From Deltaproteobacteria bacterium (lineage in GTDB: Bacteria > Desulfobacterota > Desulfobacteria > Desulfobacterales > JAUVVS01), in contig JAUVVS010000001.1 of the NCBI GenBank assembly GCA_030604545.1, forward strand, positions 1 through 29,813: a stretch of DNA of 29,813 nt. The letters run 5' to 3'. Position numbers and translations under genes: made by a program. The first letter of the stretch is position 1, and each line of letters opens with the position of its first letter. The notes under the pieces are model-generated. The model worked only from the letters and a program-made list of their open reading frames with translations. It made no database searches and was not told the origin of the DNA. Positions 1-28,491 of this stretch are shown here, piece after piece.

Positions 1-250
1 AAATGCGGATGAAATGATGGCTGAACTCAGACAAAGGGGCATTGGTACTCGTCCTTTCTTTTTGGGTTTGCACGAGCAACCGGCTTTACACAAACTTGGT
101 TTATTTAAAAACGAATCTTATCCTGTAACAGAAAGAATTTCGATGCAGGGATTGTATTTACCATCCGGCCTTACCCTTAATGAAAGACAGATTGATGAAG
201 TAGTTTCGGCGGTGCGTTCAGTTTTGTCGGAGAAAAGGACACATGGGTAA
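1..250 (+). CDS. DegT/DnrJ/EryC1/StrS family PLP-dependent sugar aminotransferase (perosamine synthetase-like), C-terminal fragment; 5' end outside window
   Basis: Frame is open from position 2 (NADEMMAELRQRGIGTRPFFLGLHEQP...GLYLPSGLTL...IDEV); RPFF..LH.QP and GLYLPS are typical C-terminal motifs of this family. TAA at 248-250. Confidence 0.85.
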   Translation, partial: NADEMMAELRQRGIGTRPFFLGLHEQPALHKLGLFKNESYPVTERISMQGLYLPSGLTLNERQIDEVVSAVRSVLSEKRTHG

Positions 251-1067
251 TAGTCAAAAATGGTGGGATGAATTTTGGACACAACAAACTTCAAATGTAA
301 TATCTGCCAAGGATAATGATGAAACCTGGCATGATCTGGTCTGGAAAGCAGGTCTTGAATACTGGTATGATCTGTTTGAAGAGCTTGCTCCCGGCAAAAA
401 GATGCTTGAATGTGGATGCGGTAGTGCCAGGGTTTCACAATATATGGCACACCATGGCTATCAATGCACCCTGCTCGATTATTCAGAGAAAGCCCTGATG
501 CTTGGCAAAAGCAATTTTGACTCACTATCCCTTGATGGACAGTTTGTTATTGGAGACATAAACCACCTTTGCTTTCCAGATGAGCAATTTGATGTAGTCT
601 TCAGCGGTGGAGTTCTGGAGTTTTTTGCCGACGCTCAAAAACCTGTCAATGAGATGGTACGTGTTTTGAAGCCGGGCGGGGTCTTTGCCTCAAACATGGT
701 GCCGAGAAAGTTCAGTATCCAGACAATAGCCGATCTTGAGCGGACATTGGCATATTCTTCCAGGAATTTAGTCAAGGGGCGATTCAGAGATGTTTTTAAA
801 AGAGTTCAATATATACCGCCGAATTATAACGTGAATTCTATGTCTCTTCAGGATTATATTGGTTTCTGTGAAAAAGCAGGGTTAACATCAGTGGTTGGCA
901 TGGTAACATCGCCTTTTCCTGATGTGGCACTACCCCAATTGGGTAAAAAACTTTATGCAAGTATTATGAAAAAGCTTCTTCCGCAATGGCGAAAGTTTAA
1001 TCTGTCAAAGAGTCGCTGGACAGAAGTCTGGGGAACATCATATACAATTTATGGGATAAAAAAGTAA
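243..1067 (+). CDS. Class I SAM-dependent methyltransferase (Methyltransf_11-type), probable sugar O- or N-methyltransferase
   Basis: Motif I MLECGCGSA, post-II FDVVFSGGVLE, EMVRVLKPGG; overlaps the upstream stop by 8 nt. Confidence 0.85.
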   Translation: MGNSQKWWDEFWTQQTSNVISAKDNDETWHDLVWKAGLEYWYDLFEELAPGKKMLECGCGSARVSQYMAHHGYQCTLLDYSEKALMLGKSNFDSLSLDGQFVIGDINHLCFPDEQFDVVFSGGVLEFFADAQKPVNEMVRVLKPGGVFASNMVPRKFSIQTIADLERTLAYSSRNLVKGRFRDVFKRVQYIPPNYNVNSMSLQDYIGFCEKAGLTSVVGMVTSPFPDVALPQLGKKLYASIMKKLLPQWRKFNLSKSRWTEVWGTSYTIYGIKK

Positions 1068-1082
1068 CGGGGAGCTAAGGGT

Positions 1083-2204
1083 ATGAGAATTGGTGTAGAT
1101 GCACGATGCCTTGAGTGGCCGGAAGGCGGACCGGCAAGATATTTAGTTAATATGTTAAAACTCTGGCCACAGCTGAACAGACAGCATCGGTTTGTGCTGT
1201 TTTTTCAGAATCATATTCCTGAGGATGATTTTCTTAAAAATGAACTATTCGAACATGTTTTGATAAAAGGGCCCGATATTTTAAAAACCCGCAGGATAAC
1301 GGGTGAACAGCTATTAATGCCTTTTTCTATCAAACAGAGTAAACTGGATTTGTTTTTTACTCCCTGGTATTCGGCCCCTCTATTATCATGTTGTCCGAAA
1401 AGTGTTGTCTGCTGCTGGGACGTTTCTGCTAAAACTCATCCATCTCACTATACTATGCTGGAAAAAATTTCTTTTGGTATATTCCCACCTCTTTCATGCA
1501 AACGGGCGGATGGCGTTATTACATGTTCTGAGTATGACGCACGCCAAATGGAGAAACATTACAGGATTCCTTCTGCGCGAATCCGCGTTGTTCATTTTGC
1601 GGCCGATGAAAAATTCAAGCCGTCAAATGATCCCGATCAGCTTGAGTCTTTTCGCCGTAAATATGGTTTTCCACAAAAATACATTCTCGTTATGGGAATT
1701 ATTATCAAAAGAAGAAATGTGGATGTAATAATTGATGCTTTCAATGATATCTATCGGGATTATCCCGATATCGGCCTGGTCGTGGTTGGTCGCAATGCAA
1801 CAACGCCATTTGTTGATATTGAGGCAAAAATGAAGCCATTAATCGAAGAAGGCCGTGGTTTCTATCTTCAGCGAGCACCGGAAGAGGATATGGTCGATTT
1901 CTATCGAGGCGCATGGTACTATATGTGCACATCTACAACGGATGGAGAGTCACTCATGTTAAAGGAAGCGATGAAATGTGGTACGCCCGTGATTACCTCG
2001 CCTTTGCTTAAAGAAACGGTGGGAGGTAATGCCGTGATTCTGGAGGATCCAACCGATCAAAAGCAGACGGCTGAGATATTTCGTAGAATTATTTCTGACG
2101 ATGATCTACGCAAGCATTATTCGGATGAAGGACAAAAATGGATGCAGTCATTATCCTGGGAAAAAGTTGCACAGGAAAGTCTGGAATTCCTTGAAACCCG
2201 TTAA
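1083..2204 (+). CDS. Glycosyltransferase family 4 (MtfB/WbpY-like GT-B)
   Basis: N-terminal RIGVDAR...GGPARYLVNML, ADGVITCSEY, C-terminal D-x7-E variant DGESLMLKEAMKCGTPVI; RBS-like AAGGG upstream. Confidence 0.88.
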   Translation: MRIGVDARCLEWPEGGPARYLVNMLKLWPQLNRQHRFVLFFQNHIPEDDFLKNELFEHVLIKGPDILKTRRITGEQLLMPFSIKQSKLDLFFTPWYSAPLLSCCPKSVVCCWDVSAKTHPSHYTMLEKISFGIFPPLSCKRADGVITCSEYDARQMEKHYRIPSARIRVVHFAADEKFKPSNDPDQLESFRRKYGFPQKYILVMGIIIKRRNVDVIIDAFNDIYRDYPDIGLVVVGRNATTPFVDIEAKMKPLIEEGRGFYLQRAPEEDMVDFYRGAWYYMCTSTTDGESLMLKEAMKCGTPVITSPLLKETVGGNAVILEDPTDQKQTAEIFRRIISDDDLRKHYSDEGQKWMQSLSWEKVAQESLEFLETR

Positions 2205-2225
2205 TAAATAATTAAGGAGGCAAAA

Positions 2226-3434
2226 ATGGAGACTATCACTCGAACTACCTGCCGCTTGTGTGGGGCGAGTGGTTTCCGCGATGTGTTTTCACTTGGAGAT
2301 CAGTACATCAATGATTTTGTTCCCCCGGAAAGAATTGGCAAGGGGCTCAAGGCACCGCTCGATCTGGTGGTATGCGACAAATGTTCTGTGTTGCAGCTGC
2401 GTCATACTGCTCCGCAGGAGCTTCTGTACAGCCGTTACTACTGGTATCGGTCAGGAGTAACAGACACAATGCGTCGCGCGTTGCGGGATATCACCGAGGA
2501 AATTGAAGCAATAGTGCCGCTCCGCCCAGGAGATGTGGTTCTGGATATCGGCGCTAATGACGGCACTTTATTAGCAAGTTACACTGCGAAAGGAATTCGT
2601 CGGACAGGTTGTGAACCGGCGAATAATCTTGTAGACATGCTGAGAGAAAATGCCGACTATGTGATGCATGACTTCTGGAATTACGAGCGCTATATGGAAC
2701 TCGCTGAACAATGGGGATTTGGAAAAGCCAAAGTCATCACCGCTATCGGCATGTTCTATGACTTGGAAGATCCCAATAAGTTTATCAAGGATGCCCGGCG
2801 AGCGTTGGCTGACGACGGTGTTTTTGTCGCCCAGTTGATGTGCCTTACACCGATGCTTGAAAAGAACGATACGGGAAATATCTGCCATGAACACCTTGAA
2901 TACTATTCTCTGGATTCCCTTAAGTATCTTTTTGAAACAAACGGTCTCGAAATGTTCAAAATTGAAGAGAATGAAGTGAATGGTGGCAGTTACCGGATTT
3001 TTGCCCGGCATTATAAAGGCACAGGAATATCATATGATGAGAAAATTACGCTTGACGATATATCGGCATTTTCCAGACGTGTCCAGGATAACCGCGATAA
3101 ATGTGTGGCATTTATCAAAGAAGAAGTCGCAAAGGGCAAAACCGTGTATGTCTATGGTGCGTCCACCAAGGGAAACGTGATTCTTCAATATTATGGCCTC
3201 GATCATACTGTAATTACCGCCGCCTCCGAACGTAGTCCTGAAAAATGGGGCAAATATACTATCGGCACGTGGATTCCAATTGTATCTGAAGAGGAAGCCA
3301 GAAGGGCCCAGCCGGATTATTTCCTTGTCCTGCCGTGGGCATTTTTTGAGGAATTCTATGAACGGGAGAAGGAATGGCGTGCACGGGGTGGAAAGTTTAT
3401 TGTCCCTCTGCCAGAATTTCGGGTCGTGCCATGA
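2226..3434 (+). CDS. NDP-hexose 3-C-methyltransferase family (NovU/TylCIII/TcaB9-like, Zn-binding class I SAM methyltransferase)
   Basis: Zn motif CRLCG...CDKC, VLDIGANDGTLL, ICHEHLEYYS, YGASTKGNVILQY, PDYFLVLPW, GGKFIVPLP; strong RBS AAGGAGG. Confidence 0.92.
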   Translation: METITRTTCRLCGASGFRDVFSLGDQYINDFVPPERIGKGLKAPLDLVVCDKCSVLQLRHTAPQELLYSRYYWYRSGVTDTMRRALRDITEEIEAIVPLRPGDVVLDIGANDGTLLASYTAKGIRRTGCEPANNLVDMLRENADYVMHDFWNYERYMELAEQWGFGKAKVITAIGMFYDLEDPNKFIKDARRALADDGVFVAQLMCLTPMLEKNDTGNICHEHLEYYSLDSLKYLFETNGLEMFKIEENEVNGGSYRIFARHYKGTGISYDEKITLDDISAFSRRVQDNRDKCVAFIKEEVAKGKTVYVYGASTKGNVILQYYGLDHTVITAASERSPEKWGKYTIGTWIPIVSEEEARRAQPDYFLVLPWAFFEEFYEREKEWRARGGKFIVPLPEFRVVP

Positions 3435-3877
3435 GCTTCATCCCTGAAGAAGAATACGCACGGATTATGGAAGTTCTGCCTGTCCTTTGCGTGGATGTGG
3501 TAGTTCAGAATTCGAGGAATGAATACTTGTTGATAAGGCGGGCCAACGAACCCCTGAAGGATCAGTGGTGGGTCATCGGCGGGAGAGTCCTGAAGGGAGA
3601 AACTCTCGAGCAGGCGGCAATCCGAAAAGTCAGGGAAGAAGTCGGCCTTAAAGTCGACTTTGTGGAACCCATTGGTTACTATGAGGATACGTTCGAAACG
3701 AATCCCTTCGGGTTACCGACACCGCTGCATTCGGTCAGCGCTGTTTTTTCCGCCAGCGGCGATGACCATCAGCAGGTCAGGCTGGACGACCAGAGCACCG
3801 ACTGGAAATATTCAGATGAACTGCCAGCCAATTTTTACATAAAGGGATTTATCCGTCACAACTGCATTGAAAGATAA
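3431..3877 (+). CDS. NUDIX hydrolase, GDP-mannose mannosyl hydrolase (Gmm/WcaH/NudD)-like
   Basis: P..CVD.VV, R..EP, W..GGRVLKGETLEQAAIRKVREEVGL Nudix box. Start placed at ATG 3431 (ATGA overlap with upstream stop), not 3374. Confidence 0.85.
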   Translation: MSFIPEEEYARIMEVLPVLCVDVVVQNSRNEYLLIRRANEPLKDQWWVIGGRVLKGETLEQAAIRKVREEVGLKVDFVEPIGYYEDTFETNPFGLPTPLHSVSAVFSASGDDHQQVRLDDQSTDWKYSDELPANFYIKGFIRHNCIER

Positions 3878-3900
3878 TGAAACACGGAGGCATGACGAAT

Positions 3901-4887
3901 ATGAGAAAAGCGCTGATTTTTGGTGTTACCGGGCAAGACGGGAGCTATCTGGCAGAGATTCTGCTTGAAAAAGGCTATGAAGTACATGGAATGGTTAGAC
4001 GTTCAGCAACCGGCAATACTAGAAATATTGATCATCTGATCAATGATCCGGAATTATTCGATCATCGTTTCTTTTTGCATCGGGGCGACCTGGCTGATCC
4101 GACATCTCTTTATCGCATAATCAATACTGTAAGACCGCATGAAATCTACAATGAAGCCGATCAGGATCACGTGAGCTGGAGCTTTGATATGGTTGGGTAC
4201 TCGGTGGATATAACGGGAGCGGCAGTTGGCCGCATATTGGAAATTATAAAACAGATCGATCCCTCCATACGTTTTTTTCAGCCTTGCACTTCTAATATGT
4301 TTGGCAAAACCGATATTATTCCCCAAACAGAATCTGTCTCTTTCAACCCGCAAAGCCCATATGCCTGTGCTAAAGTTTTTGCCTATTATTTAACGCGTTA
4401 TTATCGTGAAGCCTTTGGCATATTTACATCAACCGGGATTTTCTATAATCATGAATCGCCGAGGAGAACAGAGGAATATGTAACGCGCAAAATTACAAAA
4501 TCTGTGGCAAGGATCACCTGTGGTAAACAGGACAAATTGATTCTTGGAGATTTAAGCGCGCGTATCGACTGGGGATACTCAAAAGAGTATATGGAAACGG
4601 CATGGGAAATCCTTCAGCTTGATAATCCTGACGATTTTATTATTGCTACAGGCGAGGCACATTCAGTTAAAGAATTTGTCGATGAGGCTTTCGCGGTTGT
4701 CAATCTGAGGTCAGAAGACTATGTCGTCTCCGATCAAAGCTTGTTTCGACCCACACAAACAAGCATACTCATCGGTGACACGACAAAAGCAAGGAAAGCG
4801 TTCGGGTTTGAACCAAAAGTGAGATTCAAAAAATTGGTCAAGATAATGATGGAAGCTGATCTTGAAGCAGAAAGGAAAGGGATATAA
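3901..4887 (+). CDS. gmd: GDP-mannose 4,6-dehydratase-like extended SDR (divergent; catalytic Glu replaced by Asn)
   Basis: KALIFGVTGQDGSYLAE.LL.KGYEVHG.VRR, PQSPYACAK, NHESPRR...VTRKI, LG.L...DWG, DDFIIATG. GGAGG at 3886-3890 favours ATG 3901 (3877 also possible). Family call is firm; dehydratase activity is doubtful (see findings). Confidence 0.8.
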   Translation: MRKALIFGVTGQDGSYLAEILLEKGYEVHGMVRRSATGNTRNIDHLINDPELFDHRFFLHRGDLADPTSLYRIINTVRPHEIYNEADQDHVSWSFDMVGYSVDITGAAVGRILEIIKQIDPSIRFFQPCTSNMFGKTDIIPQTESVSFNPQSPYACAKVFAYYLTRYYREAFGIFTSTGIFYNHESPRRTEEYVTRKITKSVARITCGKQDKLILGDLSARIDWGYSKEYMETAWEILQLDNPDDFIIATGEAHSVKEFVDEAFAVVNLRSEDYVVSDQSLFRPTQTSILIGDTTKARKAFGFEPKVRFKKLVKIMMEADLEAERKGI

Positions 4888-4911
4888 CCGGCACATAAGT
4901 CGAATCAAACG

Positions 4912-6486
4912 ATGGATGAAGATCAGTTCAAACAAGCTGTCCGGCTTTTCAAGTTTCTGGGAGAGACGAAACTGAGGTCCGGGAAGAATCTCCGGACTGA
5001 ACTATGCCTTGGACAAGACATATCTCTCTGGGAGGTCGTGGCATCGTATATGGCCCTGTACCGTTTCCCGCTTTTGTTTTTGCATAATGGCGGCAGTCGC
5101 CCCTGGCGCGAGCGGTTGAAATACTATGTGCGGCCATATCGGGGGCTGGCCGCCCGATTCAGGGATTCTGTCATTTCCTCTCCTCGTAGAACCGCCACGG
5201 CCTGCCCGAAATGGCCGGAAGGTGGCCAAACAGTGCTATTTCTGGGCTTTGTGCCCACATTTTATCGCGATGTTTTGCGTCCTGTGGCTGAATCCTTGGC
5301 AACAAAAGAAAGAATACAGGTAGTTGTCATTGGGGAGAGTCAAAATCCTCCGATAGATGTACCTGCTAACGAAAAGGTGAGATTCCAATCACTGTGGGAA
5401 CATTGGGATAATGATACAGCAAATTTGTCAAAAATTATGTTGAGACACTTGCAGACACTTCAAAATATTTTCCTTAACAGAACTCAGTTTGAAGCAGTGA
5501 TACAAAATATGGGAGAGGGTTTTGACAGTTTTGCCCTGACAAGAGAATTTTATTGGCTTTTCTGGCGCGAGTTCAAACGGTTAATCCCTCAAATTGCTGT
5601 CGCCATGCAGATTCTGGATAAGCACCGTCCGGCATTAATCGTTTCTGCGGATGATGCTGATCAGCGTTGCAGGGTCTATTCTTTGTTAGCCAGGGAAAAG
5701 GGTATCCCATCCTTGCTTGTACAGCAGGGTCTTACTGAAGGAGGATATCCGGAGTGGCATTTTTTTTCTCAAACCGCAGTGGCCGCTATGGGGCAGAGCT
5801 CGCGTGCTGATATGATTGCCCAGGGTGTTCCGTCGGAAAAGATTATGCTCACAGGACACCCTGGATTTGATCATCTTGCTTTGCCGGAACCGGAACTATG
5901 CGCTCGTGTGCGTACGGATCTTGGATTGTCAAAAGGGCAAAAGATGATCCTGTTTGTCTCGCAACCGTATTATGTGGGCGTATTCAATATCCCCGGCATA
6001 CGACAGGTAATGATAAAGGCAATCGTTCAGGCTTGCGGTTCCCTTAAGAATATCAAGTTGATTGTCAAACCACACCCTGGCGATAATATGCGAGAGCTTA
6101 AAGTGTTAATTGGTAAAGCGCCACGAGTAGTGATGGTTGATCGAACGATGGATATTTCACCCTTGATTAAGGCGTGTGATGTTTTGATTACCTTCTTCTC
6201 GACTGCGGCATTACAAGCGCTTTATGCCGGCAAACCTGTTATTAATGTGGATTTTCCCGGTAGCGGCGGGCAAAGTCTGTATTCAGAAAGTGGTGCAACC
6301 TGGATAGCTCGTTCGAATGATGAGATTGCGACACACATCCGGAAATTAATCGGTGAAACCGGAAACAAAGAAATTGCAAGCCGGGAAGCTGCCCGGCAGC
6401 GTTTTTTGTATGACATGGCCTATCTTCCCGACGGACAGGCTACCGAACGTGTCGTGAAAGTTGCTTTGAATATGCTCCAATTATAA
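4912..6486 (+). CDS. GT-B-fold surface carbohydrate biosynthesis protein with HP motif (CDP-glycerol glycerophosphotransferase / Kdo- or sialyl-transferase-like superfamily)
   Basis: LLVQQG, TGHPGFD, ILFVSQP, IVKPHPGD, ACDVLITFFSTAALQALYAGKPVI. No clear RBS, so the start is uncertain. Confidence 0.65.
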   Translation: MDEDQFKQAVRLFKFLGETKLRSGKNLRTELCLGQDISLWEVVASYMALYRFPLLFLHNGGSRPWRERLKYYVRPYRGLAARFRDSVISSPRRTATACPKWPEGGQTVLFLGFVPTFYRDVLRPVAESLATKERIQVVVIGESQNPPIDVPANEKVRFQSLWEHWDNDTANLSKIMLRHLQTLQNIFLNRTQFEAVIQNMGEGFDSFALTREFYWLFWREFKRLIPQIAVAMQILDKHRPALIVSADDADQRCRVYSLLAREKGIPSLLVQQGLTEGGYPEWHFFSQTAVAAMGQSSRADMIAQGVPSEKIMLTGHPGFDHLALPEPELCARVRTDLGLSKGQKMILFVSQPYYVGVFNIPGIRQVMIKAIVQACGSLKNIKLIVKPHPGDNMRELKVLIGKAPRVVMVDRTMDISPLIKACDVLITFFSTAALQALYAGKPVINVDFPGSGGQSLYSESGATWIARSNDEIATHIRKLIGETGNKEIASREAARQRFLYDMAYLPDGQATERVVKVALNMLQL

Positions 6487-6535
6487 AGTCTGATTACATT
6501 CATCTTTCCTCCGATAAATACGAGGGGCTTCTTAA

Positions 6536-8062
6536 ATGGTATTTAGCCTAAAAAATAGACCAATGTTCTTATTGCGACGTAATGTGTTGCAAGGTTTTAT
6601 ACTCATAGTTGCAGTATTGGTATTGTTGTACGCGGTTATTTTTTTAGAGCCTGCAGATACCAGAAAAATTTTATTGACAATAATATTGATAACGGCTCTT
6701 TTTTTAGCGCTTGTCGCACCTTCTTCAAGAAAGACCTGGATTCCGATATTAATTTGTTTAATACTTATAAGAGATCTCCGTCTATGTCCTTTAATAGGTG
6801 ACGGCAGCCTGAAATTGGGTGACATTTTCATTGCATATTTGTTTGCATTATGGATGCTGGGTGATCTTTTCATAAAGAACTCTACCGGATTTGTGAAATC
6901 CAAACTGGATTTATTTATTGTATTATTTATTCTTTTTCATGTTTGCTCCTTACTCTGGTCAACTGACTTGGAGTATGGACTTGTGAGATGCCTAAAATTA
7001 ATCCGCAATTTCCTGTTTTATATAATAATACGAGATCTGTTTATAAGAGATTTTTGGGGCAGTTATAAAAGAATGACAGCTTCTTATATAGGGACAGGTG
7101 TTGTCTTGCTGATAGTATATGCATCTGTGGTGCTCTCGGCGGGCGGGTTTTTAGACTTTTTATCGTTGTATCAAAAAGAAACGCTTACTTCACTTGATCT
7201 TGGGGCATTGAGAGTTAGAGGCACAGGAGCCGGGTTCTTAATCTCCGGCCCTTCAATGTGGTTCATGATTACAGGAGCGTTTATTTTTGGATCGCTTGTG
7301 CTGACTGATTCACAAATTGCAAGAAGAATAAAAATACCTTTAGCAATATTAATGTTTACGGCAGCAACTGTATTGACATTGGCTCGATCAGTATTTGCAA
7401 TGTTAATTATACTATTAATGTTGTTGTTTTTGGGGAGTTTGTATCTAAAACTAAAAAGAAATATCATAGCAATATCTGTTGTATTGATTGTCTTCCTTAT
7501 AGGTGGAGCGGCTTCAGGTGTGGGAGGAATTTATTCTAAACGCTTTACGAATGCATTTCAAGATGGTTCCTGGACACAAAGAGAAGAATTTTACAATGCA
7601 GCTATCGATGCCTTTGTTGAAAATCCTGTGGCGGGTATCGGCGTTGGAAGTAATTACTCCTGGCAGTTAAACTACCCGGAGATAGGGGGGAATAGATCAC
7701 GGATAGTACATAGCGCTTACCTGCTTGTGCTGTCTGAGGTGGGGTTGTTGGGATCGATGCTATTCGTTGTCATTCTTTATTTCTGGTTGCGATATCTGTG
7801 GGACTGTGTTCGAAACCGCAATTGTGAGCCTCGTCTTCGGAGTATTTGTATGACAATGTTTGCCTTTAGCATCAGCTACCTCATGTATATATCGATAGTT
7901 GGGGAATTTGAGGCATTTGAACCCTGGTTAGTGATGGCCATTGCTTCCGCTGTCAAGAACCTGCCTTCGTCGTCTGTTCAAATGGTTAATTCTGTTTCGA
8001 ATACAGTATCTTCCGGGATGGGATCCATTAATTTAGCACTGAGCGATGAGAGGAATTGTTAA
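6536..8062 (+). CDS. O-antigen ligase / Wzy polymerase family membrane protein (Wzy_C)
   Basis: About 12 hydrophobic segments, TLARS, periplasmic loop S...R...Y..AI..F.ENP..GIGVG, HSAYL.VLSEVGLLG motif; RBS GAGGGG. Confidence 0.88.
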   Translation: MVFSLKNRPMFLLRRNVLQGFILIVAVLVLLYAVIFLEPADTRKILLTIILITALFLALVAPSSRKTWIPILICLILIRDLRLCPLIGDGSLKLGDIFIAYLFALWMLGDLFIKNSTGFVKSKLDLFIVLFILFHVCSLLWSTDLEYGLVRCLKLIRNFLFYIIIRDLFIRDFWGSYKRMTASYIGTGVVLLIVYASVVLSAGGFLDFLSLYQKETLTSLDLGALRVRGTGAGFLISGPSMWFMITGAFIFGSLVLTDSQIARRIKIPLAILMFTAATVLTLARSVFAMLIILLMLLFLGSLYLKLKRNIIAISVVLIVFLIGGAASGVGGIYSKRFTNAFQDGSWTQREEFYNAAIDAFVENPVAGIGVGSNYSWQLNYPEIGGNRSRIVHSAYLLVLSEVGLLGSMLFVVILYFWLRYLWDCVRNRNCEPRLRSICMTMFAFSISYLMYISIVGEFEAFEPWLVMAIASAVKNLPSSSVQMVNSVSNTVSSGMGSINLALSDERNC

Positions 8063-8067
8063 AGTTA

Positions 8068-9564
8068 ATGTCTATGGATACGAGTTGGAACACCAAGCGA
8101 ATTTATTTGGTCCTTTTTTCGATCCTGCTAATAGGGGGTTGTCTCAGGTTTTATCAATTGGGAGAGAAAAGTCTCTGGACAGATGAGCTGGTGGTAATAT
8201 CAAACGCTGTCAACCTTGTTGATATTAAATCTTTTCTTGCGCATACTCGTGGTGATGATTTGCCAAGGTTTTATTCCTTACTTTTTAAGTTCTGGATGTT
8301 TCTTGGTGATTCAGAGTTTACAATGCGTACACTTTCCGTCATATTTGGTTGTTTGTCCATTTTGGTAACATATGCCGTGTGCCGGCTTTTTTTTGATATT
8401 AAAACTTCTTTATCTGCGGCATTTTTAACAGCTATTTCCCCTTTCCTGTTGATCTACGATCGGGAAATCCGCATGTATTCTCTGTTCGCGCTTTTCTCCC
8501 TATTATCAACATATTTTTTCATCCGCTCTTTGAGAGAAGACAGAAAAGGTCTCTGGATTTTTTATACAGTTATAAATGTGCTGAACATTTATACACACTA
8601 TTATGCTTTTCTGGTTTTAGGAGTCCAGGGTTTGTTTGTCGTTCTTCGTTTTCGAGACTACAAAAAGATTCTTAAGCCCTGGATTGTGGCAAACGGGATC
8701 ATAGCTCTTGCCTTTACGATCCGACTTTCGGCCTTTATTCAGGACGTAGCATACCATGCCCCATGGGCGCTGCCGCGAGAGCGCTTCCCTTTTGTTTTCG
8801 GAAAGCATGTCGTCGAATTCTTTTATATCTTTTTTTCTCTTTCAGCAGGACAAACCATACTGCCCTGGAATCCTCTTGCCGTCCTGATTTGTCTTGCCGT
8901 GTTTGCGTGTTTTGCCGTCGCCGTCAAGAAGGGAATATCCTTTTCTCAGGACACACTGTATCTGGTTATGCTGGTTTTTATTCCCGTGGTAATCGGAATC
9001 GTATTCAGAATTTCCATGCCGCGGTACTTTATCTTTGCGGCGCCCGTTTTTTTTATGCTCATTGCCAGGGGGTTCTGGCTGCTTCCGAAGAAAGTGATGG
9101 TGATTACGGCTTTAATTATAGTAACAGGTTGGAGCTACGGGATTGCTAATTATTACCAGAATAAACAATTCCATATCATGGCTCATGTTGATCCCTGGAG
9201 AGAGGCGGCTCAATTCCTTAAAGAAAATGTGAAAAACAATGAGGAGATTGTGGGGATAGGGATTGGTGTTGTTCCCCTGCGCCATTATTATGGGAGTTCT
9301 GTCCCCGGATTTTCCGGCGAGGCACTGATAAAAAAAGTGCGGGAACTGGACGAAGCTGGAACTGGGAAGGTATGGCTGGTCTATACTTATCGTGAGGAAT
9401 ATGAGAATTGGCTGAAATCCCGTGATATTCTTAGTAAAAATTATAGCGTATTAAGCGAAAAAAGATGGGCACACGATCCTGATTTTGCATTGAAAAAGAA
9501 ATTTTTTAAGAGAACTTTCGCGCCCTATCGCATTGCAGCCGAACTCTATGAACGGAAAAAATAA
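8068..9564 (+). CDS. GT-C fold glycosyltransferase (GT39/GT83, PMT_2/ArnT-like), lipid-phosphate-sugar dependent
   Basis: LRFYQLGEKSLWTDE first-loop acidic motif, P.FY.LL..W, RTLSVIFG, SP..LIY.REIRMY, many TM helices and a soluble C-terminal domain. Alternative start TTG 8056. Confidence 0.85.
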   Translation: MSMDTSWNTKRIYLVLFSILLIGGCLRFYQLGEKSLWTDELVVISNAVNLVDIKSFLAHTRGDDLPRFYSLLFKFWMFLGDSEFTMRTLSVIFGCLSILVTYAVCRLFFDIKTSLSAAFLTAISPFLLIYDREIRMYSLFALFSLLSTYFFIRSLREDRKGLWIFYTVINVLNIYTHYYAFLVLGVQGLFVVLRFRDYKKILKPWIVANGIIALAFTIRLSAFIQDVAYHAPWALPRERFPFVFGKHVVEFFYIFFSLSAGQTILPWNPLAVLICLAVFACFAVAVKKGISFSQDTLYLVMLVFIPVVIGIVFRISMPRYFIFAAPVFFMLIARGFWLLPKKVMVITALIIVTGWSYGIANYYQNKQFHIMAHVDPWREAAQFLKENVKNNEEIVGIGIGVVPLRHYYGSSVPGFSGEALIKKVRELDEAGTGKVWLVYTYREEYENWLKSRDILSKNYSVLSEKRWAHDPDFALKKKFFKRTFAPYRIAAELYERKK

Positions 9565-26285: not shown

Positions 26286-27041
26286 ATGAACGACAATCAT
26301 TATCAGAAATTGGTTCAAGAAAAAGGGAATACTAAGCTTGCCAGTTGCGGTTACACAGACCGCTTCGATCCCTTCGTATTAAACAAGAATTCCCGTCTCC
26401 GGGAGTTGTATGGTGGTTTGTTCAGTTCATTTCTGAACGATATTCCCTGCAATAAGTTGTTGGATATAGGTTGTGGTACCGGGATCTACTTTGACGTCCT
26501 TGCCACCTATTCAGATCACATCGAGGCAATAGACCTTTCCAAAGAAATGATACAAGTGGCGCGGGAATATTGCCTACAGAATGGTTTGACAAATATCCAT
26601 CCTCGGATGGGCTCAGCGGAATTTCTTGAGTACGAGGATGAAAGGTTTGATGTTGTTATTGAACTCGATGTGCTTCATCATATTAGCGATTTAAAAAAAA
26701 CTCTGTCTGAGATCTACCGGGTGCTAAAGCCCGGCGGCCATTTTCTTGTCTTTGAACCAAACATTTGCAATCCTTTGATGTTTCTTGCCCATGCTCTGCC
26801 TGTAGAGGAGCGCCTGGCTCTTGGGCGTAACCGACCAGGGAAATTGATCACATTGCTTGAGGAACGATTTGACACTGTTCACTGGGAGGGTGTCTGTGCC
26901 TTGATCACACACACCAAAGGGGTTAAGCGATTCATTTTAGATAGATATTTAAAGCTTTGGAAACTCTCTGGCGTGAAACGATGTTACCCACGGCAGGCTT
27001 GGTTGGGAATTAAATCAATAGATTCAAAAAATGGACTTTAA
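26286..27041 (+). CDS. Class I SAM-dependent methyltransferase (Methyltransf_11-type)
   Basis: LLDIGCGTG, IDLSKEMI, FDVV...DVLHHI, EIYRVLKPGG.F...EPN. Confidence 0.88.
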   Translation: MNDNHYQKLVQEKGNTKLASCGYTDRFDPFVLNKNSRLRELYGGLFSSFLNDIPCNKLLDIGCGTGIYFDVLATYSDHIEAIDLSKEMIQVAREYCLQNGLTNIHPRMGSAEFLEYEDERFDVVIELDVLHHISDLKKTLSEIYRVLKPGGHFLVFEPNICNPLMFLAHALPVEERLALGRNRPGKLITLLEERFDTVHWEGVCALITHTKGVKRFILDRYLKLWKLSGVKRCYPRQAWLGIKSIDSKNGL

Positions 27042-28491
27042 AGTTACACTCATAAACCCACCACTGGTGTATAACGCTGGTGATGCCTATGGCAGTATTC
27101 CTTTTATGCCAACCGGTTTATTGTATCTGGCAGGATATTTGGAATCAAACGGTGTAGATGTTTCCATCATTGACGGGTTTGGCTTATCTCCACGCCAGTT
27201 TTACCAAATTGACAGCAAACTTATTGGCAATGGGTTAAGAGAGGAAGAGATAGCCGAACGCCTTGACGGTGAAAAACTCGTGGGTATCTCTGTTCATTCC
27301 GGCATGTCTCATTCGATTGCGCTGCGATTGGCCCAAACTATCAAGAAACGACTTCCTTCGGTTACTCTGGTCGCCGGTGGAAGCCAAGCGAGCGTGGTTT
27401 ACAAAGATTTCCTTGAAGGAGGGTTTGACTACGTTTGCATTGGAGAGGGGGAAAATTCTCTTTTTGCCTTGGTGAAATATCTTCGAGATGGGCAAGGAAG
27501 TCTCTCAAGCATACCGGGTTTGGCCTATCACGGGATGGCACCGAGTCCATGCGTTTTCGAAGAGGACCTTGACCATTTTGCATTTGGCGCATTGCAGATG
27601 CTTCCATTGCATATCTACTGGAGCTTTGGAATGCAGCATGCACCAACCCAGGGGAAATTCATGGTAATAACTACCTCGCGAGGATGTATTTACAACTGCC
27701 GTTTTTGTACTACACCGAAACTTCACGGACGTAAATGGCGAACACGGTCGGCCAAAAACATCGTAGATGAAATACAATCAGCCGTTGAAAGTTACGGAAT
27801 TGAAGATGTTATCATTCAAGATGAACTTTTTGGCTTTCGAAAAGAAAGCGCGCGTGATTTTGCTTATGAGATTATAAACCGCAATCTGAAGATACGAATT
27901 TCTCTACCATCTGGAATGAAGGTAGAGACAACCGACGAAGAGACGCTTGCCTTATTAAGACAGGCCGGATTACATTATTTAGTTTTTGCTCCTGAAAGCG
28001 GCTCGAAACGCGTACTTAAAAAAATGAATAAGCCGATGAATTTCGAAAAGCTGTTCCGTTTGGTCTCGTTTGCTGGTGACATAGGAATTAAAGTGGGGTG
28101 CTTTTTCGTCATTGGCTTTGAAGATGAAAACGATGAAGACCGGAGAATGACCAAAGATTTGGTGGTGAAGCTGACAAAGTTGGGGGTGGATGAGGTAAGC
28201 CTGTTTATCTGGTCGCCTCTGCCGGGCGCAGCTGCGTTTGAAAGCGAAACCGGCTGGTCTCGATACGAGGATCTGAACTGGAGCCCTACGTGGCGCAAGG
28301 ATTACAATAAACTAAATAAATTCCGCAACAAATTGTATAAACGGTGGCTTCTTACAAAAGTTTTCTATCACCCTGTCAACTCTATGCGGCTGGCTTTCAA
28401 CGTCTTTACCGGTCGTTTCCAACTCAAAAGCGAGATGGCTTTCCATCGAGTGCTACGCTCTTATTTAAACAAAAACAGTACCCCACCTTGA
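27031..28491 (+). CDS. B12-binding domain radical SAM protein (class B methyltransferase-like)
   Basis: N-terminal PTGLLYLAGYL, VGISV, VAGGSQ, DYVCIGEGE cobalamin-binding signatures; TSRGCIYNCRFC (CxxxCxxC at 27685-27708), R.RS..NIVDE, ESGS.RVL..MNK, F.IGF..E. Confidence 0.92.
   Translation: MDFKVTLINPPLVYNAGDAYGSIPFMPTGLLYLAGYLESNGVDVSIIDGFGLSPRQFYQIDSKLIGNGLREEEIAERLDGEKLVGISVHSGMSHSIALRLAQTIKKRLPSVTLVAGGSQASVVYKDFLEGGFDYVCIGEGENSLFALVKYLRDGQGSLSSIPGLAYHGMAPSPCVFEEDLDHFAFGALQMLPLHIYWSFGMQHAPTQGKFMVITTSRGCIYNCRFCTTPKLHGRKWRTRSAKNIVDEIQSAVESYGIEDVIIQDELFGFRKESARDFAYEIINRNLKIRISLPSGMKVETTDEETLALLRQAGLHYLVFAPESGSKRVLKKMNKPMNFEKLFRLVSFAGDIGIKVGCFFVIGFEDENDEDRRMTKDLVVKLTKLGVDEVSLFIWSPLPGAAAFESETGWSRYEDLNWSPTWRKDYNKLNKFRNKLYKRWLLTKVFYHPVNSMRLAFNVFTGRFQLKSEMAFHRVLRSYLNKNSTPP

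Follow-up and report, generated by a model that had tools for sequence, protein, structure and literature searches.

What does a protein do that resembles the 4,6-dehydratase of GDP-mannose (Gmd) along its whole length but lacks the glutamate with which that enzyme dehydrates its substrate? The question is raised by a 29.8-kb contig (C225; the whole of this stretch is called the window below) from a 65%-complete metagenome-assembled genome (MAG) of a Deltaproteobacteria bacterium, on which all genes lie on the plus strand in a single large glycan-biosynthesis cluster. The open reading frame (ORF) at 3877–4887 encodes a Gmd paralog with Asn at the catalytic Glu position, and lies behind genes for a nucleoside diphosphate (NDP)-4-ketohexose C-methyltransferase (2226–3434) and a Nudix hydrolase (3431–3877). 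Judging from its sequence, its relatives, and their gene neighborhoods, the paralog is very probably a non-dehydrating oxidoreductase that acts at carbon 4 (C4) of a nucleotide sugar and works with the C-methyltransferase. The more specific reading that we prefer, namely that it is an NADPH-dependent 4-ketoreductase finishing a GDP-6-deoxy-3-C-methylhexose after Gmd and the methyltransferase, has in our estimate about an even chance of being correct, with redox direction, GDP carrier, methylation position (C3 as opposed to C5), and product stereochemistry (of the evalose or virenose type) all presumptive.

The Glu-less paralog and its clade

The ORF translates to 336 aa, and the ATG at 3901 (Met9) is its likely true start, as indicated by homologs and by a database gene call of 328 aa. 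Full-length alignment at ~50% identity to the solved GMDs of Arabidopsis, human, Escherichia coli, and Pseudomonas aeruginosa (including 1n7g; E 1e-81 to 3.5e-97) settles the fold. The Rossmann motif GVTGQDGSY (residues 16–24, nt 3922–3948), Thr138, and Y162ACAK166 (nt 4360–4374) are intact, as in an extended short-chain dehydrogenase/reductase (SDR) with its triad, and NHESPRR and VTRKIT are present as well. PF16363 is matched at E 1.7e-105 and TIGR01472 at 398.7 bits (397.3 in the genome scan), the latter falling under its curated equivalog cut-off of 415.

GMDs carry [ST]SE...Yx3K; beyond the triad, their catalysis involves just one further residue, the Glu (PMC8987622), which serves as the base acting at C5 (PMC3584063). 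The corresponding segment of the paralog, QPCTSNMFG (residues 135–143, nt 4279–4305), reads TSN, with Asn140 encoded by AAT (4294–4296), two base changes away from GAA or GAG. In addition, NEADQDHV (residues 92–99, nt 4150–4173) replaces NLAAQSHV through L93E, A95D, and S97D. The alignment to the Arabidopsis and human GMD structures, which is unambiguous, places Asn140 under the catalytic Glu, and E93, D95, and D97 under the L, A, and S of NLAAQSHV. A first-pass annotation of the letters alone had already read both altered motifs alongside intact Thr, YACAK, and NADP motifs, and had argued that the AAT codon was no single-base error; this reading is exact, the GMD alignment gives the same motifs, and the substitution is common to the 120 best homologs.

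By these features the paralog descends from Gmd: the binding sites for NADP(H) and for the nucleotide sugar are retained, as is the Thr/Tyr/Lys triad, the dehydrating Glu is lost, and the hexose pocket appears remodeled (NEADQDHV, FQPC, N225D, R230I, R50N). A C4 redox triad in the absence of the dehydratase acid/base is the functional pattern of Rmd/GTS-type enzymes, and the paralog has it. By descent it falls outside the Rmd/GTS lineage: its PDB matches at E <= 1e-20 comprise 11 GMDs plus one heptose dehydratase and include no RMD chain.

The substitutions are the property of a clade. Among 5.8 billion proteins, the 120 best matches (77–92% identity) all read [TS]S[N/H] at the former active site, and NEADQDHV occurs in 120 of 121 sequences, which excludes chance or sequencing error. 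Where the source gave these homologs any name, it was 'GDP-mannose 4,6-dehydratase'. In a tree of 172 Gmd-family sequences, those bearing NEADQD formed one clade with support of 1.0 and a stem length of 0.28, apart from canonical Gmd. The clade comprised 44 tips, five of them unreadable at the former Glu site; Glu was present in none of the other 39, which had N (28), T (7), M (2), H (1), or L (1). Since three markers, namely the Glu, the curated cut-off, and the position in the tree, all set it apart, the paralog lies, as far as they go, outside the Gmd equivalog family (EC 4.2.1.47) and is best described as a mis-annotated variant of a known enzyme kind.

We then compared 67 clade sequences with 34 canonical copies. 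Glu was present at the former catalytic site in 100% of the canonical copies and Asn in 97% of the clade members, while the acidic trio of NEADQDHV was conserved in 100% of the clade and L/A/S in 100% of the canonical copies. Fixed differences were R50N, L93E, A95D, S97D, Y134F, A136P, E140N, F201Y, N225D, R230I, V295T, and W311F. The former catalytic position thus drifts (N/T/M/H/L) while NEADQDHV stays invariant, and given this variation the site is catalytic no more. By analogy with GalE/WbpP-type structures, positions 93–97, 136–140, and 225 probably line the hexose pocket, and 230 is probably a diphosphate-binding Arg. The clade has also lost, through R50N, the last Arg of the RR loop, which in GMD touches the cofactor of the neighboring subunit (PMC3584063); the loss fits an enzyme that would need an exchangeable cofactor.

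A subunit that has no catalysis of its own and serves the methyltransferase as scaffold or regulator might be expected to show the missing catalytic residue and the obligate pairing or fusion with the methyltransferase that the clade displays. We regard this as scarcely credible, given that conservation in the clade reaches 90% or more for the Rossmann motif, Thr/Ser, Tyr, and Lys as well as for NHESPRR and VTRKIT, and that identities of 62–92% across phyla indicate strong purifying selection.

Species-representative genomes yielded 180 stretches that encode relatives, and the best 80 of these had 62–84% identity. The 80 were spread very widely; they came from Omnitrophota, Chloroflexota, Planctomycetota, Desulfobacterota-type lineages, Nitrospinota, Acidobacteriota, Gemmatimonadota, and Spirochaetota, from groups of the Candidate Phyla Radiation (CPR), and from archaea (methanogen orders and DPANN). 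A sample of 300 genomes from the window's own phylum held no copy of the paralog, no clade member was found at >= 60% identity in plasmid or phage collections, and it proved impossible to link a cultured host whose glycan is known. In an Anaerolineales chromosome, a 500-aa ORF (L041:7386–8888) begins with a fragment of FAD/NAD(P)-binding type (NAD_binding_8/DAO) and continues as a paralog that is missing the first ~28 Rossmann residues. It has no methyltransferase in its vicinity, and decay or rearrangement may have produced this copy.

A conserved cassette and its relation to canonical Gmd

The C-methyltransferase is the paralog's most constant neighbor. In 63 loci flanked by 1.7 kb or more on each side, it lay within 1.5 kb of the paralog in 54 and within ~3.5 kb in 58, usually in the order methyltransferase, optional Nudix gene, paralog. 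The same order is preserved in a natural methyltransferase-paralog fusion of 732 aa (P0125). The co-occurrence of the clade with C-methyltransferases, which the first-pass annotation had proposed as a check, is therefore borne out.

In the window, the C-methyltransferase (2226–3434, plus strand; PF08421, PF13489, PF08484) is preceded by a strong ribosome-binding site (AAGGAGG) 5′ of its ATG at 2226 and is 80–88% identical to partners in other phyla. It has the architecture of the TylC3/MtmC/TcaB9 type, with a Zn-ribbon, methyltransferase core, and C-terminal domain, and with the four Cys of CRLC...CDKC and HEH. Its best PDB matches were MtmC (4rv9; 8e-49, residues 7–402), TcaB9 (1e-39), and KijD1 (2e-36). 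The earlier annotation had named NovU together with TcaB9 as a model for C3-methylation; NovU is a C5-methyltransferase.

Between the methyltransferase and the paralog lies the Nudix gene (3431–3877, plus strand; 148 aa, PF00293), which had been missed in the first pass. It overlaps the methyltransferase stop as ATGA, and its own stop overlaps the first ATG of the Gmd-like ORF as TAATG, so that it is translationally coupled on both sides. Its top PDB hit is 1rya, the GDP-mannose mannosyl hydrolase of E. coli (Gmm; E 8e-17), and the alignment starts at Met20 of the long ORF and spans the whole length. At 61.6 bits it falls under the cut-off of 146 for the curated Gmm family NF011963. The Nudix box keeps an EE pair (RKVREEVG), unlike E. 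coli Gmm, and in the HMMER alignment a Ser occupies the column of the catalytic His124 of Gmm. From these residues, the cassette Nudix may cleave a diphosphate rather than a glycosidic bond.

Other partners were counted in the 41 loci that have 6 kb or more of sequence on each flank: an aminotransferase was present in 34, a cupin in 28, and the Nudix gene in 28. The best PDB match of a full-length aminotransferase homolog was GDP-perosamine synthase (E 1.5e-95), which supports GDP-4-keto-6-deoxymannose chemistry, and we infer GDP as the carrier solely from this perosamine-synthase-like partner and from Gmd. Genomes whose cassettes lack the aminotransferase carry more distant perosamine-synthase-like genes elsewhere (46–49% identity). 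The cupin (134–140 aa) usually lies right before the aminotransferase (L109:808–1227 on the minus strand, L010:2843–3247, and 27 other loci). It matched the WbuC family weakly (34.7 bits, cut-off 42), had no Pfam match and no PDB sequence match, and could be a ketoisomerase or epimerase.

A Glu-bearing Gmd was encoded within a few kb of the paralog in 11 loci. In two of these (L027 and L031), the genes for Gmd, methyltransferase, Nudix, and paralog were contiguous, and in a third (L010) Gmd, cupin, and aminotransferase genes lay upstream. At the level of whole genomes, a second Gmd-family gene (44–54% identity) was present in 40 of 42 paralog genomes, and Glu was present in all 34 second copies inspected. 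A Gmd-type gene was present in 61% of 300 sampled genomes (>=85% complete) of the window's phylum. Set against this background, the 40 of 42 gives a binomial p of 4e-7, a value uncorrected for relatedness and drawn from sets that differ in taxa. The expectation of the first-pass annotation that a true Gmd lies elsewhere thus holds for 40 of the 42 other genomes; in the source assembly, which is 65% complete, none was found.

These genomes bear on a further possibility, that the paralog is still a 4,6-dehydratase on GDP-mannose or another GDP-sugar, with a relocated base (e.g., Asp97 or Glu93) in place of residue 140. Other NDP-sugar dehydratases do use different acid/base pairs, Asp/Glu or Asp/Lys (PMC8987622), the clade has new invariant acidic residues, and no other gmd was found in the 65%-complete source assembly. 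However, such an enzyme would be redundant beside the canonical Gmd of 40 of 42 genomes, often in the same operon; the former Glu site drifts freely; and the methyltransferase requires a keto sugar before, not after, the position that the paralog holds in the gene order. We therefore consider continued dehydration decidedly improbable.

Across its first third, the window (1–9564) is collinear gene for gene with loci in an Omnitrophota MAG (L010:3198–13516) and a Syntrophaceae MAG (L018:3349–13526), at 42–88% protein identity. All three run from the aminotransferase through Methyltransf_11, GT4, the C-methyltransferase, the Nudix, and the paralog to a 'surface carbohydrate' transferase-like protein, then a Wzy-like and finally a GT-C protein. 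GC content is 46% in the three core genes, versus 40% for the distal two-thirds of the window. Collinearity across taxa, absence from the 300 phylum genomes, and the difference in GC all fit a cassette that looks horizontally mobile.

The outer members of the shared segment are all on the plus strand. At the contig end, 2–250 encodes the C-terminal 79 residues of a perosamine-synthase-like DegT aminotransferase (PF01041 positions 289–360 matched), 61–75% identical to aminotransferases immediately 5′ of the methyltransferase elsewhere. A class I S-adenosylmethionine (SAM) methyltransferase (Methyltransf_11, 243–1067; PF08241, E 2.8e-23) follows, with 59% and 69% identity to the same-position genes of L010 and L018, respectively; it is possibly a sugar O- or N-methyltransferase. 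The GT4 glycosyltransferase (1083–2204; PF00534, PF13439) is 72–78% identical to its counterparts in the two collinear loci. The upstream aminotransferase invoked in the first pass is therefore real, yet it is partial in the window and separated from the C-methyltransferase by the genes at 243–1067 and 1083–2204. Downstream of the paralog, 4912–6486 encodes a 'surface carbohydrate biosynthesis protein' with a glycerophosphotransferase-like fold (TIGR04396, PF04464), 58–68% identical to same-position genes in L009, L010, and L018; this conserved 3′ neighbor of the collinear loci is a probable transferase.

The missing N-terminal part of the aminotransferase (residues 6–291, 286 residues, 76% identity) was located at the end of another contig of the assembly, C36, preceded by a WbuC-like cupin. 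C36 hence continues the locus 5′ of the window, with about 19 codons missing at the junction. Contig C176 was also considered as the 5′ neighbor and ruled out, as its aminotransferase differs (30% identity). A canonical gmd just 5′ of the window, as the collinear Omnitrophota locus would predict and as the first-pass annotation had suggested looking for, was likewise ruled out, since C36 carries none. Further 5′, C36 (L109:3–7985, minus strand) encodes a NeuC-like hydrolyzing UDP-GlcNAc 2-epimerase, an LmbE-type deacetylase, a CBS-nucleotidyltransferase, and a PseF-like fragment, which together are a nonulosonic-acid-type set. Separately, B12-binding radical SAM genes, which the window also carries (26286–28491), lay no more than 8 kb from the cassette in 15 of the 80 loci (e.g., L019:14628–15788, L057:13506–14792) and may add further C-methylation to the same glycan.

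The proposed reaction and its competitors

Loss of the Glu with retention of Thr/Tyr/Lys and of the cofactor and nucleotide sites leads us to expect C4 redox chemistry without dehydration. TylC3-type methyltransferases require a 4-keto sugar, and their product retains the keto group; in most cassettes, no other SDR was available for its reduction. The simplest scheme is for these reasons Gmd, then C-methyltransferase, then paralog. A canonical Gmd encoded elsewhere would make GDP-4-keto-6-deoxy-D-mannose, to which the C-methyltransferase would add a methyl branch beside the keto group, probably at C3. The paralog would then reduce the C4 keto group with NADPH, giving GDP-6-deoxy-3-C-methylhexose, and neighboring glycosyltransferases would transfer the branched sugar into a surface glycan. 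According to PMC3584063, which cites King et al. 2009, some bacterial GMDs weakly reduce the 4-keto sugar that they form, and this gives an evolutionary route from Gmd to a reductase.

The reduction proposed in the first pass is accordingly the most economical role for a Gmd-derived SDR that lacks Glu and is coupled to a methyltransferase. Several observations nevertheless weigh against it. Neither canonical gmd nor manC was found in the 65%-complete source assembly, and canonical gmd was not found on C36. The co-occurrence with Gmd in other genomes could in part reflect the need of the aminotransferase rather than that of the paralog. Moreover, the perosamine-synthase-like aminotransferase of 34 of 41 loci would compete for the same keto group, so that either the cassette makes two sugars or all of its enzymes serve one amino-C-methyl sugar with the paralog in a role other than terminal reductase. 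The invariant acidic residues E93, D95, and D97 and the loss of Asn225 and Arg230 are not accounted for by reduction. Finally, in two Gemmatimonadota loci (L063:3419–11197 and L067:3410–11232), the paralog lies between the Nudix gene and the perosamine-synthase-like aminotransferase, amid genes for GDP-D-glycero-D-manno-heptose (HddA kinase, HddC-GmhB fusion). There is no C-methyltransferase and no 4,6-dehydratase at either locus, the only other SDR being GalE-type (FASTGAIFG). Here, the paralog itself seems to generate the keto sugar, which suits a C4 oxidase better than a reductase, and these loci may encode a 4-amino-4-deoxy-heptose route with the paralog as oxidase.

The heptose-linked loci bring in the foremost competitor, that the paralog oxidizes C4 without dehydrating, or serves the methyltransferase as a redox-neutral, 'hydride-borrowing' partner. 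It would act on a GDP-sugar with a C4 hydroxyl, which could be GDP-mannose, GDP-heptose, or a GDP-3-amino-3,6-dideoxyhexose built by Gmd, a cupin isomerase, and the aminotransferase. The new C4 keto group would let the methyltransferase or aminotransferase act, after which the hydride would be returned or NADPH released. In one of the two Gemmatimonadota genomes, no second Gmd copy was found. The near-equal conservation of aminotransferase and cupin with the methyltransferase makes a single linear pathway attractive, and the gain of four invariant acidic residues (E93, D95, D97, D225) with the loss of R230 would suit an ammonium-bearing sugar. The tight gene pair and the methyltransferase fusion fit shuttling of an unstable keto intermediate, and Campylobacter Cj1427, which oxidizes a GDP-manno sugar at C4 and does not dehydrate it, provides a precedent. 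On the other side, a canonical Gmd would be superfluous in a pure oxidase route, yet it accompanies the paralog in 40 of 42 genomes against the 61% background and often immediately precedes the methyltransferase in the same operon. In addition, the invariant motifs are unchanged in loci without aminotransferase or cupin, and Y134F, A136P, S137C, and E140N would lower polarity near C5/C6, as would suit a 6-deoxy substrate. We view oxidation, in either form, as a tentative but real possibility.

One version of hydride borrowing, to which we assign a slightly lower standing and which we would call doubtful, casts the clade as a C-methylation helper. It would raise a transient 4-keto group on a finished GDP-sugar, on which the C-methyltransferase beside or fused to it could act, and then return the hydride, giving a 3-amino- or 4-amino-3-C-methyl GDP-sugar. 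GDP-3-amino-3,6-dideoxyhexose is again the candidate substrate, its ammonium group to be held by E93/D95/D97/D225. If true, this would reveal an undescribed GDP-linked amino-C-methyl sugar across bacterial and archaeal phyla.

The same invariant Asp and Glu residues could instead be the acid/base groups of an Fcl-like epimerase/reductase that epimerizes C5 after C-methylation and reduces C4, yielding an L-configured 6-deoxy-3-C-methylhexose. A proposed Coxiella virenose route does have an Fcl-type enzyme after Gmd and the C-methyltransferase (PMC3539893). However, the residue lost from the paralog is the one that handles the C5 proton in Gmd, and beyond the SDR fold no similarity to Fcl or GMER appeared, the PDB matches at E <= 1e-20 being GMDs and the heptose dehydratase. 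Epimerization is, in our judgment, unlikely.

Thousands of clade entries in the databases bear the name GDP-mannose 4,6-dehydratase without the residue that defines that activity. Under the preferred 4-ketoreductase reading, as under the broader oxidoreductase role, pathway reconstructions are therefore wrong at this step in many uncultured lineages, including CPR bacteria and DPANN archaea. The clade would mark a conserved, horizontally mobile cassette for a methyl-branched GDP-sugar. Once identified, the reaction could represent the first GDP-linked route to branched-chain sugars, with a dehydratase turned plain C4 redox enzyme, and could offer a new enzyme pair for glycoengineering.

Comparison with known systems

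Our literature search, which was limited in coverage so that absence is not proven, found no paper characterizing the Glu-less clade or any GDP-sugar C-methyltransferase; on a characterized GDP-sugar C-methyl pathway, it turned up only the Coxiella virenose proposals. In Coxiella burnetii, an in-silico GDP route to virenose (6-deoxy-3-C-methylgulose) comprises the Gmd CBU_0689, the TylCIII-like CBU_0691, and the Fcl-like CBU_0688 (PMC3539893, PMC3204966). The likeness to our scheme is that a 6-deoxy-3-C-methyl sugar derives from GDP-mannose through Gmd, a TylC3-type methyltransferase, and SDR reduction. In contrast, the Coxiella Gmd has the normal Thr/Glu/Tyr/Lys, the last enzyme is Fcl-type, and the route includes no Glu-less Gmd, Nudix, or perosamine-synthase-like partner.

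Coupling of C3-methylation to 4-ketoreduction has a precedent in MtmC of mithramycin biosynthesis, a bifunctional enzyme with both activities and the closest solved relative of the window's C-methyltransferase. MtmC, TcaB9, and KijD1 act on dTDP-2,6-dideoxy or 3-amino sugars in the antibiotic pathways of actinomycetes. Unlike in MtmC, the putative reductase of the window and its relatives would be a Gmd-derived SDR, either on its own or fused, with GDP as the probable carrier.

For the oxidase alternative and the heptose-linked loci, the model is Cj1427 of Campylobacter jejuni, a GDP-D-glycero-alpha-D-manno-heptose C4 dehydrogenase that is a non-dehydrating SDR with no methyltransferase partner. 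It is not a close relative, being absent from the paralog's PDB matches at E <= 1e-20.

Compared with canonical Gmd, the paralog retains the full-length fold at ~50% identity, GxxGxxG, the RR-loop region, Thr/Tyr/Lys, NHESPRR, and VTRKIT; it differs in having Asn for Glu and NEADQDHV for NLAAQSHV, along with R50N, Y134F, A136P, N225D, and R230I. For the 4-ketoreductase reading, the nearest functional parallel is the GMD/RMD pair of the GDP-D-rhamnose pathway in P. aeruginosa and Aneurinibacillus thermoaerophilus, which follows the same logic of a dehydratase and then an SDR limited to reducing the C4 keto group. As an SDR, RMD is distant, whereas the paralog is a recent Gmd offshoot tied to a C-methyltransferase, and because of that tie its substrate, unlike that of RMD, is probably a branched keto sugar. 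The paralog probably works, then, as Rmd does, on a branched substrate.

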